Shown one piece after another: positions 45,318 to 55,262 of a stretch of 64,000 nucleotides of DNA. The position numbers and the translations under genes are program-made. A model generated the notes under the pieces. It had not been told where the DNA came from. It ran no database searches and saw only the letters and a program-made list of their open reading frames with translations. Each line of letters opens with the position of its first letter. Positions within the stretch are counted from its first letter, which is position 1. The stretch lies in the sequence record OQ446694.1; one strand, 5' to 3'. This DNA is from Escherichia phage Killian.

Positions 45318-45620
45318 TTATTTACCTTTAATTACTTTAGCTGCTTCGATAGCCGCTTGCTGAAGGTCATCCATAGACATACCGAATTTAGAAGCAAAGT
45401 TATCAATTTTCTTTTCGACAGCATTCAAAGGCTTGGCCTGTTTACCTTCATTAGCGCCAGGAAGAGCGAGAATACGCTCTTTGTCAATATAAAGGCTTAC
45501 AAGTTTCTTACGGTCTTTATCGGACAAATCGTGAAATGAATGGGCCTTTTTATTTATAGCGGCTTCTAATTTACCTGCACTCACTCGCGCTTCAGTAATA
45601 AATTCTTGATATGTTTTCAT
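45318..45620 (-). CDS. ipII: internal protein (IPII-like) with capsid-targeting N-terminus
   Basis: 100 aa; MKTYQEFITEA N-terminus matching the IP capsid-targeting/prohead-protease cleavage consensus. Confidence 0.6.
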   Translation of the reverse strand: MKTYQEFITEARVSAGKLEAAINKKAHSFHDLSDKDRKKLVSLYIDKERILALPGANEGKQAKPLNAVEKKIDNFASKFGMSMDDLQQAAIEAAKVIKGK

Positions 45621-45651
45621 ATGTTTCCTTTAAATATTTTAATTAGTAATT

Positions 45652-45690
45652 GTGAATATATTATCGCAGTTTTAGGAGAAAATAAACAAC
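45652..45690 (-). promoter_or_regulatory. early promoter upstream of IPII-like gene
   Basis: -35 GTTTATT and -10-like element, same architecture as at 45283. Confidence 0.4.
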
Positions 45691-45691
45691 T

Positions 45692-46186
45692 TTATAGATT
45701 TTTATACGCATCCCAAGTGCCAGTCCTAAACGTAGCGATGACTCGTTTTGCACGGTTAGGTGTTTGATTATACCATCTACTTTTAGCTAAGTTAACTGCT
45801 GCTTCATCCCAGCGTTTTTGCTGGAGCATGCGTAAAGAATTAGTAAATCCTGCTACGCCGGTTTCTCCCATTTGGAAGACCATGTTAATCAATGCACAGC
45901 GGCGAACAGCATCAAGAGAATCATAAACTGGTTTTAATTTAGCATTTCTCAGAATTCCGCGAACAGCAGCATCAACATCCTGATTAAAGAGTTTTTCAGC
46001 CTCATCTTTTGTAATTACACCATTGCAATTACGCCCAATAGCTTTATCTAATTCAGATTTAGCAACACTTAGTGATGGACTTTTAGTAAGCAAATGACCA
46101 ACGCCAATAGTGTAATAACCTTCTGTGTCTTTATAGATTTTAAGTCTAAGACCTTCATCTATACGTAACATTTCAAATATATTCAT
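45692..46186 (-). CDS. e: lysozyme (endolysin) e
   Basis: 164 aa, [28 protein letters not shown]..., near-identical to recalled T4 lysozyme. Confidence 0.97.
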
Positions 46187-46199
46187 AATACCTCCTAAG

Positions 46200-46220
46200 T
46201 ATTTATAGAAGGTATTTATA
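46200..46220 (-). promoter_or_regulatory. two tandem late promoters (TATAAATA) upstream of lysozyme e
   Basis: plus strand TATTTATA at 46200-46207 and 46213-46220. Confidence 0.65.
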
Positions 46221-46222
46221 AA

Positions 46223-46678
46223 TTAAAAGAGGTTGTTCATTATTCTGTAAAGTGAAGGACCCATCACATATTGCCACTGAGTACGAGGAATAAGAGCAAA
46301 AGCATCCATCTCTGGAATCATAACGCCATCTTTATTTTCAAAATAAGACTCGCAATGGCAATTTCTAAACATCTCATGCTCTACTGGAATCGTATAATAA
46401 AATAACTGTAAGTCTTTATTACTAGAATATTTAAATACACCTAAGTCTTCTAGAAGGTCTGGATTATAATTGCTAAAGCCAGTCTCTTCTAAGCATTCTC
46501 TTCGTGCTGCATCTAGTGCGCTTAAATCAGAACTTTCTACACGCCCCTTTGGAATATCCCAGCGATGTGCCATCATTCCAGGCTTACGAGAACCAGTAAC
46601 CCGTCCCATGAATAAATCTTTATCTTCTGTCATAAAGATAATACCAGCTGATAGTGTTTTCATTTTAATTTCCTGCAT
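46223..46678 (-). CDS. nudE: Nudix hydrolase NudE
   Basis: 151 aa; Nudix box GRVESSDLSALDAARRECLEETG. Confidence 0.8.
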   Translation of the reverse strand: MQEIKMKTLSAGIIFMTEDKDLFMGRVTGSRKPGMMAHRWDIPKGRVESSDLSALDAARRECLEETGFSNYNPDLLEDLGVFKYSSNKDLQLFYYTIPVEHEMFRNCHCESYFENKDGVMIPEMDAFALIPRTQWQYVMGPSLYRIMNNLF

Positions 46679-47148
46679 TCAGTGATAAAGTTATTTAAAT
46701 TTTGAGTATATTTCTTTTCATCAAAAATCTTTTGTTGTCTGCGCATCCGCCATGGCATTTCAATGAACATGTACCATATTCCTGATAATATTGATGCTGT
46801 AAAAATATTAACAAGTATGGTTAAAAGAATCCAATCTCCTATTCTGTCCATTGGATTTTTTATAAAAAAGTAAAATACGAATGATGACACAGGAAGACTA
46901 ATGATATACCACAGAATCATAATCTTATCTGTGAACCATTCAGCATTCGTTAACTTAGCACGACCATTATGAATACACACGAATTTATCATCTGTTACAG
47001 TAGATGGCTTAACTGCTTGATATCCCATTCTAAACTCCCTAATTAATCGTTTCTTTGTATCTTCAGAACAGCCGCTCCAGTCAACTCTATCAACTGAAAT
47101 GCCATCGTCCCCATCATCTAAATCATACCAGTGAGTTTTTAAAATCAT
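46660..47148 (-). CDS. membrane protein (e.x cluster)
   Basis: 162 aa with hydrophobic helices. Confidence 0.45.
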   Translation of the reverse strand: MILKTHWYDLDDGDDGISVDRVDWSGCSEDTKKRLIREFRMGYQAVKPSTVTDDKFVCIHNGRAKLTNAEWFTDKIMILWYIISLPVSSFVFYFFIKNPMDRIGDWILLTILVNIFTASILSGIWYMFIEMPWRMRRQQKIFDEKKYTQNLNNFITECRKLK

Positions 47149-47519
47149 TTAATTTTCCTACAATCACTCACAAACTCTTCCATTGATTCTTTTTCAATAT
47201 AAGACATATAGCTATTATATTCCTTTAATTGTATTTTGTAATCCTTTTTTCTTTGCCAATTTATTTTAAAATTATCATAATGAAAATATAACATGGTACC
47301 AAAGAATGAAAATAATGAAATTGCTATAGTATAATGAAGTTCACTCCAAACTTCTATTATATCTACTATACCGCTGACGTTACTGCGGATGTTTAAAATA
47401 AAACAGTCAATTAACAATCCAATAAAACTACCCGCAAGAGCTGCAGCCAATGCCACAGCAAAAATTGAAAATGACTCAGAAAAAGAATATTTGACTTTAT
47501 TTAGTTTTGGCTTTTGCAT
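47145..47519 (-). CDS. membrane protein (e.x cluster)
   Basis: 124 aa with hydrophobic helices. Confidence 0.45.
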   Translation of the reverse strand: MQKPKLNKVKYSFSESFSIFAVALAAALAGSFIGLLIDCFILNIRSNVSGIVDIIEVWSELHYTIAISLFSFFGTMLYFHYDNFKINWQRKKDYKIQLKEYNSYMSYIEKESMEEFVSDCRKIK

Positions 47520-53759: not shown

Positions 53760-54050
53760 TCACCACGCTGCGTTAATGTAAGTATATTTAATACATTCAA
53801 GACCCAAAGGATTCTTGAAAATATCATATTCAAGAGGACCTTTTTCTGTTTCAATAAAGAAATCAAAATTTACTGTATTAAATTTACGTTCTTCCTTCAC
53901 TAATTTAACTTGAGAAGATGAACGGTCAATGTAAACCCTTTCAACTTCAAAACATGTTAAAATGCCATAATCATCAATCAAAGCTTTAGCCGCGTCTTGA
54001 TCATATTTATATCCATTTTCAATGGATGATACTTTCGCATAAAGAATCAT
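53760..54050 (-). CDS. hypothetical protein
   Basis: 96 aa ORF. Confidence 0.45.
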   Translation of the reverse strand: MILYAKVSSIENGYKYDQDAAKALIDDYGILTCFEVERVYIDRSSSQVKLVKEERKFNTVNFDFFIETEKGPLEYDIFKNPLGLECIKYTYINAAW

Positions 54051-54052
54051 TA

Positions 54053-54451
54053 TCAGCCTTCATCAACAATAGTGTGAGTATTGGCATTTACGATTTGCCA
54101 CCAGTCAAATCGATTAGAACCCATCGGTTTGTTTTCATTTTCTTTGATAATGTCACGGAGTTCATCTTCAGAGAATGCTTTAGCGATTAAATCGGTATAC
54201 CCACCACGGGGATAATAATTATCACCTGCAAACAAAAGGAAATTTACCTTCCCGGAAGCAACATATGCTTCCTTAGGATACTTGTTTCCTGCGTGGTCAA
54301 CCACTTCAATATAACGGTAAGGAATATCGGTTCTTTCAACCCATTGCCATGCCGCCGCAGGGGAATCGAAAGCATCTACACCTAAACGATTATCTTCATC
54401 TTTAGACGGATTATTTTCGTAATCCGCATATACATAATATTCAACGTTCAT
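54053..54451 (-). CDS. hypothetical protein
   Basis: 132 aa ORF. Confidence 0.45.
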   Translation of the reverse strand: MNVEYYVYADYENNPSKDEDNRLGVDAFDSPAAAWQWVERTDIPYRYIEVVDHAGNKYPKEAYVASGKVNFLLFAGDNYYPRGGYTDLIAKAFSEDELRDIIKENENKPMGSNRFDWWQIVNANTHTIVDEG

Positions 54452-54636
54452 TATTCACCTTTAGAAATTTTATCCATAACGATAGCAATTAAACCAATTA
54501 AAAATGCTACTACAAGTGAAAAAACATTTTCTGCCGTAGTCAATAATCCGCATATAAATCCAACAAACATTGAAAAACTGAAAGCGGAAGCAGAAATTGC
54601 AATAGCAACATTTCGAATTAATTCACAACGTTTCAT
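54451..54636 (-). CDS. small membrane protein
   Basis: track ORF 54451..54777 trimmed to MKRCEL start downstream of a promoter. Confidence 0.4.
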   Translation of the reverse strand: MKRCELIRNVAIAISASAFSFSMFVGFICGLLTTAENVFSLVVAFLIGLIAIVMDKISKGE

Positions 54637-54659
54637 TTTATTCTCCTCAGTAGTTGATA

Positions 54660-54697
54660 GGGTAATAGTATCACTACCCCATCTAAAAGTAAACTTA
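54660..54697 (-). promoter_or_regulatory. T4-type early promoter (IP locus family)
   Basis: TTGATAGGGTAATAGTATCAC...GTAAAC cassette. Confidence 0.5.
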
Positions 54698-54928
54698 TTT
54701 TTTACGAAAAATTGATTTATTTTCTGCTGCCCATTTTTCAATAACTGCAACAGGACCAGTAACAACAATTTTATCACCGTAATCTTCTGCGGCGAGTTGA
54801 CCGAAATTATCTAATGCATCACGAAGAACTCCATGAGGCATTTCACCCATTTTATCTTTCTTGCCGGTGTAAATAAACTCAGCTTTTACATCAGAAGATT
54901 CAGCGATAAACTCTTTGAAAGTTTTCAT
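54695..54928 (-). CDS. internal protein-like (ipI-locus family) with capsid-targeting N-terminus
   Basis: MKTFKEFIAES start (second Met of track ORF 54695..54940). Confidence 0.55.
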   Translation of the reverse strand: MKTFKEFIAESSDVKAEFIYTGKKDKMGEMPHGVLRDALDNFGQLAAEDYGDKIVVTGPVAVIEKWAAENKSIFRKK

Positions 54929-54957
54929 TTTGATTTCCATTTGGTTTTGTTTTGATA

Positions 54958-54994
54958 GGGTAATAGTATCACAGCTAAAACCCTATGTAAACAA
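54958..54994 (-). promoter_or_regulatory. T4-type early promoter (IP locus family)
   Basis: cassette repeated before each IP-like gene. Confidence 0.55.
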
Positions 54995-55004
54995 CTTTGT
55001 GAAA

Positions 55005-55262
55005 TTATTTTAAATCTTCTAATCGTTTCTTCATCTTAGAACCATTCTTAGCGATTTCTCCTGCATCAGAGCATAATGCTAAAAGCGCTTTAACTTTAGT
55101 TTGGTCTCCTTTAAAAGATGAAGGATCGACTGCAGCAGCAAGTTCTTTAATACGAGAGAAAAGACGCTCGGCTTCAGCTAAAGCCATTCCAAGCTTTACT
55201 TCCATACCGTGGGAAGATTCAGTGATAGTAGTTTTTGTAGCAAACTCTTTGAAAGTTTTCAT
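55005..55262 (-). CDS. internal protein-like (ipI-locus family) with capsid-targeting N-terminus
   Basis: 85 aa; MKTFKEFATK N-terminus; own early promoter. Confidence 0.55.
   Translation of the reverse strand: MKTFKEFATKTTITESSHGMEVKLGMALAEAERLFSRIKELAAAVDPSSFKGDQTKVKALLALCSDAGEIAKNGSKMKKRLEDLK

Follow-up and report, generated by a model that had tools for sequence, protein, structure and literature searches.

Internal proteins (IPs) of phage T4 are loaded into the head through a capsid-targeting sequence (CTS), the 10 to 15 N-terminal residues of each protein, which attaches to the scaffolding core (gp22) while the prohead is being assembled. Once gp21, the prohead protease, has taken off the CTS, the mature protein, small and basic in most cases, stays with the DNA in the head and is injected along with it. 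The standard view of IPs as injected anti-restriction proteins sharing only the CTS reportedly originated with Repoila 1994. Escherichia phage Killian (sequence record OQ446694.1) carries four open reading frames (ORFs) beginning with MKT[YF]xEF in the 64,000-nucleotide stretch analyzed here, called the window: orthologues of the named proteins IpII, Ip5, and Ip6, and a 187-residue product, p187, of the family phrog_2280. In our judgment these four ORFs quite probably encode injected internal head proteins of Tequatrovirus that have been moved as cassettes and are likely to play an anti-defense role. For IpII, Ip5, and Ip6 there is nothing new in this; only p187, located at a third locus, is new, and its sequence marks it as a likely internal protein missed by current annotation and as a candidate new member of the class.

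IPs are regarded as diverse injected anti-restriction proteins with the CTS alone in common (Rao and Black 2010, PMC3012670). Within the CTS, residues 4 and 7 determine targeting and residues 8 and 10 determine processing, gp21 cuts after L/I-x-E, and in T4 the first 10 residues alone are enough for loading foreign proteins into heads (PMC9026906). Injection with the DNA has been established for the T4 IPs only (PMC12373910), and each of Ip1, Ip2, and Ip3 blocks a distinct type IV restriction enzyme of the GmrSD family, with no cross-protection among them (PMC12373910; PMC9391042). The enzyme inhibited by IPI* is GmrSD-CT596, that inhibited by Ip2 is a BREX-embedded GmrSD of ECOR21, and that inhibited by Ip3 is the two-gene GmrSD of ECOR17 (PMC12373910). 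IPIII is needed on ECOR17 and functions in the cytoplasm without its CTS (PMC9391042). Open-access papers refer to "two highly variable IP loci" (PMC2839356).

A six-frame regular-expression scan of the whole 64 kb returned exactly four matches to MKT[YF].EF, each at the start of one of the four ORFs and all on the minus strand, and relaxed versions of the pattern produced no extra matches in the same scan. The analytic expectation from six-frame amino-acid composition was 0.002 matches, 200 shuffles contained none, and a Shine-Dalgarno sequence (GGA/AGGA) lies 5' of each of the four ATGs. An origin of the shared N termini in chance or composition among AT-rich phage ORFs has the shortness of the motif on its side and no other support; it is refuted by these counts and shuffles, and with all four matches at ORF starts preceded by Shine-Dalgarno sites and three of the genes orthologous to named IPs, its probability is negligible.

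The residues that direct T4 proteins into heads were present in each of the four leaders. All have the targeting determinants, Y or F at position 4 and F7, and in three proteins an [IL]-x-E motif at residues 8 to 10 is followed by A or S (ITE before A, LTE before A, and IAE before S). In Ip5 the motif is I-T-E at residues 13 to 15, followed by S, comparable to the I-T-E at residues 17 to 19 of IPI. The predicted N-terminal peptides after leader removal are AAKLPSEADLTK for p187, SSHGMEVK for Ip5, SSDVK for Ip6, and ARVSAGK for IpII. With the leaders stripped, no similarity among the four proteins was detectable, and none of the mature parts resembled T4 IPI or IPIII, the only detected relationship being that of IpII with T4 IPII. 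None of the four had a significant family in Pfam or NCBIfam, and PDB sequence searches with them found nothing. In PHROG, three of them carry the name "internal virion/head protein," and the exact sequences of all four are already present in public databases.

These results bear on an earlier note made from the same sequence, which had described four ORFs at three loci with MKT[YF]xEF starts and matched them to the T4 capsid-targeting sequence. The ORF list and the six-frame scan bore out the ORFs, their loci, and their starts, and the match to T4 held for all four at residues 4 and 7 and at the L/I-x-E motif. The glutamate that the note placed about 10 residues in was found at residue 10 in three proteins and at residue 15 in Ip5. 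Its term "internal-protein family" suits the leader but not the cargo, and alignment to T4 IPI, IPII, and IPIII, a check it had proposed, gave 93% identity of IpII to IPII with the other mature parts unlike IPI and IPIII. Judged by sequence, these are CTS-bearing IP genes at three loci; the interpretation was right as to kind and, for three of the genes, already standard knowledge.

The leader of p187 combines Y4, F7, L8, and E10 with a following Ala, every sequence feature of a CTS. Among p187 relatives only 28 to 31% identical, F7, L8, and E10 are invariant and residue 4 is aromatic, and a 157-residue paralogue (p157) located beside p187 in relatives starts with MKSYAQFLNE before A. A 204-residue metagenomic homologue starts with MITFNEFLNE before S, and its neighbor, an unrelated 144-residue ART-PolyVal/DUF3990 protein, starts with MITFKQFLNE before S (Logan contig SRR28624380_555336, positions 1419-2526). 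Because these unrelated neighbors have the same variant leader, the leader appears to go with the genome rather than with the cargo, which is what one would expect of a signal suited to the prohead core of that phage. The same contig suggests, from its sequence, that an ADP-ribosyltransferase-like enzyme is loaded through this tag.

Such conservation is difficult to reconcile with the alternative that p187 is not head cargo and acts only in the producing cell, its leader being left over from recombination with an ip gene or having arisen by convergence. A relic leader should decay, yet Y/F4, F7, L8, and E10 are kept at this level of divergence, the variant on the metagenomic contig equals that of the adjacent unrelated gene, and ten T4 residues suffice for loading foreign proteins (PMC9026906). 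The alternative draws on the facts that p187 has never been annotated as an IP, sits outside the two classical IP loci (PMC2839356), has a weak promoter match and no late promoter, and has indirect and unspecific data as its sole proteomic support. We regard it as unlikely, and the interpretation of p187 as a packaged protein is preferred.

Members of phrog_2280 were annotated "hypothetical" in all 164 phage records carrying a homologue (e.g., RB14ORF136 and Shfl2p135) and in all named cluster members. An exhaustive HMMER search of 1.8 billion proteins returned only five representatives of p187 homologues, one of them distant; a word-indexed protein search with p187 returned close relatives only, and a related-locus search with the family alignment returned near-identical loci only. 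Relatives hold from zero to two phrog_2280 genes at the e.8-rnaC/tRNA locus, and T2, T4, T6, and PST have none. This absence, together with the two-locus view in the literature, is probably why phrog_2280 was never named as an IP. No paper on phrog_2280 turned up in text searches with the names RB14ORF136 and Shfl2p135 or with the leader peptide; a mention in Repoila 1994 or Comeau 2007 is possible. Comeau 2007 is said to give "more than 30 IP variants," and phrog_2280 may be counted among them.

Mature p187 and IPIII* of T4 have similar sizes and charges (177 residues and isoelectric point [pI] 9.5, compared with 183 residues and 9.65), and the leader architecture is identical. p187 differs from IPIII in having no sequence similarity to it, in lying at another locus, and in being predicted as all-helical. 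The match in size and pI, in a phage from which ipIII is absent, would also be expected if IPs, and p187 especially, were mainly structural, neutralizing DNA charge or aiding prohead assembly like IPIII, with p187 replacing the missing IPIII. IPIII mutants are slower in head assembly and have smaller bursts (PMC9026906), and leader-bearing cargo is mostly basic, with a median mature pI of 10.1 among the matches listed in an IMG/VR scan described below. However, vB_VIPECOOM01 and like relatives hold both ipIII and p187, IPs are not needed on laboratory hosts, their presence/absence polymorphism is typical of host-range genes, and all three T4 IPs, IPIII included, have specific GmrSD targets (PMC12373910). 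A mainly structural role thus seems improbable to us compared with an anti-defense role for injected cargo.

Virion data exist for a relative. The p187 paralogue g140 is listed as particle associated ("PPAP") in both purified virion preparations of phage fD1, as is Ip4 (g129) (PMC8309999 Table S3). Several results weigh against the interpretation of p187 and the other three products as injected anti-defense proteins. The fD1 analysis, which used tandem mass spectrometry after liquid chromatography, was unspecific, with 113 proteins of the phage (DenV, lysozyme, and NudE among them) as well as 672 of the host (PMC8309999), and a literature search for virion proteomics of a p187-bearing phage, including the paper on fPS-2/65/90, found none. 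The exact T4 late promoter TATAAATA was absent from the 100 nt upstream of all four genes, and the p187 promoter match is weak (Table 1). With a pI of 6.5, mature Ip6 is close to neutral, in contrast to the basic classical IPs, and no resemblance of the mature domains to IPI* or to any solved structure was found. The single-sequence AF2 model of p187 is all-helical with low confidence (pLDDT 64); a BFVD search with it returned nothing below an E value of 0.01, and no fold conclusion was drawn. In assays of Ip4 to Ip10, which by numbering include Ip5 and Ip6, no reproducible inhibition of 15 GmrSD groups was seen (PMC12373910). As Ip1, Ip2, and Ip3 are themselves mutually unrelated, unrelated folds are no argument against an anti-defense role of Ip5, Ip6, and p187, and the structural models identify no target for Ip6 or p187.

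IpII is the protein for which a function can be proposed most directly. Window IpII and T4 IPII are identical at 93 of 100 residues, and the exact sequence is recorded in databases as "IpII protein." It is like T4 Ip2 in its locus between denV and e and in its leader type, and it differs by seven substitutions (T9, S14, I22, S33, K47, V96, and G99). By this orthology window IpII should act like Ip2, and by analogy it very probably inhibits a type IV restriction enzyme of the GmrSD type, of the BREX-embedded kind found in ECOR21. The specificities different from those of T4 that the earlier note had suggested for the ipI-locus pair and the gene beside the tRNA island do not extend to an orthologue this close; the anti-restriction role is backed by orthology for IpII only and is plausible for Ip5, Ip6, and p187.

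The region upstream of ipII differs from that in T4. Between the e stop codon and the ipII ATG, the window sequence aligns with the T4 e-to-ipIII interval and not with the T4 ipIII-to-ipII interval, the blastn segments overlap at this junction across a shared repeat of promoter, ribosome-binding site (RBS), and CTS, and ipIII is absent from the window. An e-ipII segment of the T4 e-ipIII type indicates that recombination inside the repeated segment of promoter, RBS, and leader removed ipIII. Because ipIII is missing, window ipII, unlike that of T4, is driven by an upstream region of the ipIII type. The neighboring denV ORF (44709-45260) encodes 183 residues, compared with 138 in T4, and a C-terminal denV extension of about 45 residues is annotated in UGKSEcP2 as well.

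Ip5 is 100% identical to the Ip5 proteins of RB15 and PST, and Ip6 is 97% identical to PST IpVI, 91% identical to the T6 gene product noted as "Ip6," and 70% identical to VR7 Ip6. T6, RB15, and Yersinia phage PST share the 57B-ip5-ip6-trna.4 order and the promoter repeats of the window, with essentially no difference beyond the Ip6 leader, which is MKTYQEF in T6 and other orthologues and MKTFKEF here. Compared with T4 IPI*, Ip5 and Ip6 are encoded at the same locus, have a similar mature size (76 residues in IPI*, the structure of which is solved), and have the same kind of leader, the long leader of Ip5 being of the IPI type. The IPI leader, MKTFKEFTSTTTPVSTITE before A, has 19 residues and is cut after residue 19, and the Ip5 leader has 15. 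The longest ORF at 54695 opens four codons upstream of the ip6 start, at 54940 (MEIKMKTF...), where the ATG has no Shine-Dalgarno sequence, unlike the ATG at 54928. Databases hold both 77- and 81-residue forms of Ip6, and use of the 81-residue start conceals the N-terminal tag from motif-based annotation. In the AF2 model of Ip6 (pLDDT 80), a disordered leader precedes a small domain with a ferredoxin-like fold (beta-alpha-beta-beta-alpha-beta), and the top BFVD match of the model is VR7 Ip6 (TM 0.96). Matches to solved structures were generic ferredoxin-like folds, none of them specific, and a functional inference from this fold was rejected.

Repeats at these loci (Table 1) coincide with gene gain and loss. 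p187, its promoter-like site, and its terminator form a clean 659-nt insertion relative to T4 (50236-50894), and the 28-nt terminator-like direct repeat bounding this cassette is present as a single copy at the T4 empty site. The annotation of RB51 records a 34-bp imperfect direct repeat around the p187 paralogue. Orthologues of Ip6 bear either MKTFKEF or MKTYQEF leaders, which argues that leaders have been exchanged independently of cargo. These repeats and insertion-deletion boundaries fit the regulatory-cassette shuffling described for IP loci and PeSLs (PMC2839356, PMC4122927), in which repeated promoters, with or without a terminator hairpin, likewise flank variable small genes and coincide with such boundaries (Arbiol 2010; Comeau 2014). 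Here, as a difference, the repeat takes in the RBS and leader codons as well, which makes the leader itself a source of recombination homology.

Table 1. Positions of the IP and candidate IP genes, associated regulatory elements, and glucosyltransferase genes in the window
Feature	Position	Strand	Details
ipII orthologue	45318..45620	minus	100 aa; leader MKTYQEFITE, then A; mature 90 aa, pI 9.7; phrog_7857 "internal virion protein," E 4.5e-55
Promoter/RBS segment 5' of ipII, T4 ipIII type; recombination junction	45621..45700	minus	blastn versus T4
Terminator-like hairpin downstream of p187, one copy of 28-nt direct repeat	50208..50235	minus	terminator and repeat scans
p187, candidate internal protein, phrog_2280	50244..50807	minus	187 aa; leader MKTYAEFLTE, then A; mature 177 aa, pI 9.5; E 2.5e-53, "unknown function"
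Weak sigma-70-like promoter match upstream of p187	50862..50890	minus	ATCACA-17-GATAAT; consensus scan only; total of such sites in the region not above shuffled expectation
Terminator-like hairpin upstream of p187 (3' end of rnaC region), second copy of 28-nt repeat	50895..50925	minus	
Third copy of 71-nt element, 61% identical	54652-54722		upstream of trna.4
ip6/ipVI	54695..54928	minus	77 aa; leader MKTFKEFIAE, then S; mature 67 aa, pI 6.5; phrog_8111
31-nt repeat over RBS and first leader codons (ip6)	54908..54938	minus	94% identical copy (ip5) at 55242-55272
Early-promoter element, 71 nt, upstream of ip6	54950..55020	minus	TTTACA-17-TACTAT with TG; T4-early type; 89% identical to ip5 copy
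ip5/ipV	55005..55262	minus	85 aa; IPI-type long leader MKTFKEFATKTTITE, then S; mature 70 aa, pI 9.2
Early-promoter element, 71 nt, upstream of ip5	55280..55350	minus	repeat and promoter scans
alpha-gt	4127-4975		
T2/T6-type beta-glucosyl-HMC-alpha-glucosyltransferase	16979-18178		replaces T4 beta-gt

Taken together, IP genes would be cassettes of promoter, RBS, CTS, and cargo, in some cases with a terminator, that homologous recombination in the repeated promoter and leader segments would shuffle, gain, and lose. Such recombination would account for the T6-type pair of Ip5 and Ip6, for the missing ipIII, and for p187 as a clean insertion. The sequence itself shows the motif, the orthologies, the repeats of the cassettes, both recombination junctions, and a leader conserved over divergent cargo. 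We infer packaging, processing, and injection of the four products in this phage, as well as all of their anti-defense functions: the CTS of each would bind the gp22 core, gp21 would cleave after L/I-x-E, and the mature IPs would stay with the packaged DNA and enter the host with it. Ip5, Ip6, and p187 would then most likely be further injected first-response anti-defense proteins.

The genomic setting is that of a T-even phage. A megablast search with positions 45000-56000 matched more than 1,100 phage records, nearly all best matches being Tequatrovirus at 93 to 98% identity with conserved gene order, and the flanking genes are as in T4 (denV, e, nudE, e.2 to e.8, rnaC/rnaD, the tRNA cluster, trna.2 to trna.4, 57B, 57A, and gene 1). 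The window encodes gp42 (dCMP hydroxymethylase) in addition to the two glucosyltransferases in Table 1. With the hydroxymethylase, alpha-gt, and the T2/T6-type transferase, the DNA should carry glucosyl/gentiobiosyl-hydroxymethylcytosine, a substrate of GmrSD-type type IV enzymes.

Between the p187 cassette and trna.4, homologues of rnaC (50976-51114, 98% identical to T4) and rnaD (51121-51237, 93%) are present, and no Rfam family reached its gathering score for either. The tRNA cluster (51242-53165) has seven tRNAs and no tRNA-Gln. A 210-residue ORF with an HNH motif (52533-53165) adjoins tRNA-Leu at the place where T4, T6, and PST have tRNA-Gln, and a SegB-like GIY-YIG ORF (51322-51987) lies inside the cluster.

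Beyond this phage, an IMG/VR scan for the coding pattern of the leader matched at least 120 stretches, and the following figures hold among the matches listed. The pattern stood at an ORF start in 120 of 134 cases, residue 11 was Ala or Ser in 62%, and the leader-bearing cargo fell into at least 57 clusters (37 singletons). Cargo domains included ART-PolyVal, GNAT acetyltransferase, cytidylyltransferase-like, DUF6267, and DUF5661, and several of the leader-bearing contigs were T4-like by their neighboring replication genes. From this breadth of cargo, the tag appears to be in use well beyond T-even coliphages. A broader proposal, offered tentatively and as a possibility rather than an expectation, is that p187 and p157 represent a third IP locus, lying between e.8 and the stable-RNA/tRNA genes and encoding an effector against a defense other than the GmrSDs targeted by Ip1, Ip2, and Ip3, and that MKT[YF]xEF[ILVM]xE is an address label of the T4 superfamily.

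Injected IPs are a phage's first response to host defenses and help set host range, and the IPs with known targets are T4 Ip1 to Ip3 only. If confirmed as cargo, p187 would provide another family to test against the defenses of wild E. coli and Shigella, as well as a third genomic place to look. Since the leader is short, recognizable, and nearly always at an ORF start, it could allow candidates for injected effectors to be nominated cheaply, both in T4-like phages used for therapy and in contigs from metagenomes, and if it is indeed an address label of the T4 superfamily, it could be mined systematically for such effectors.

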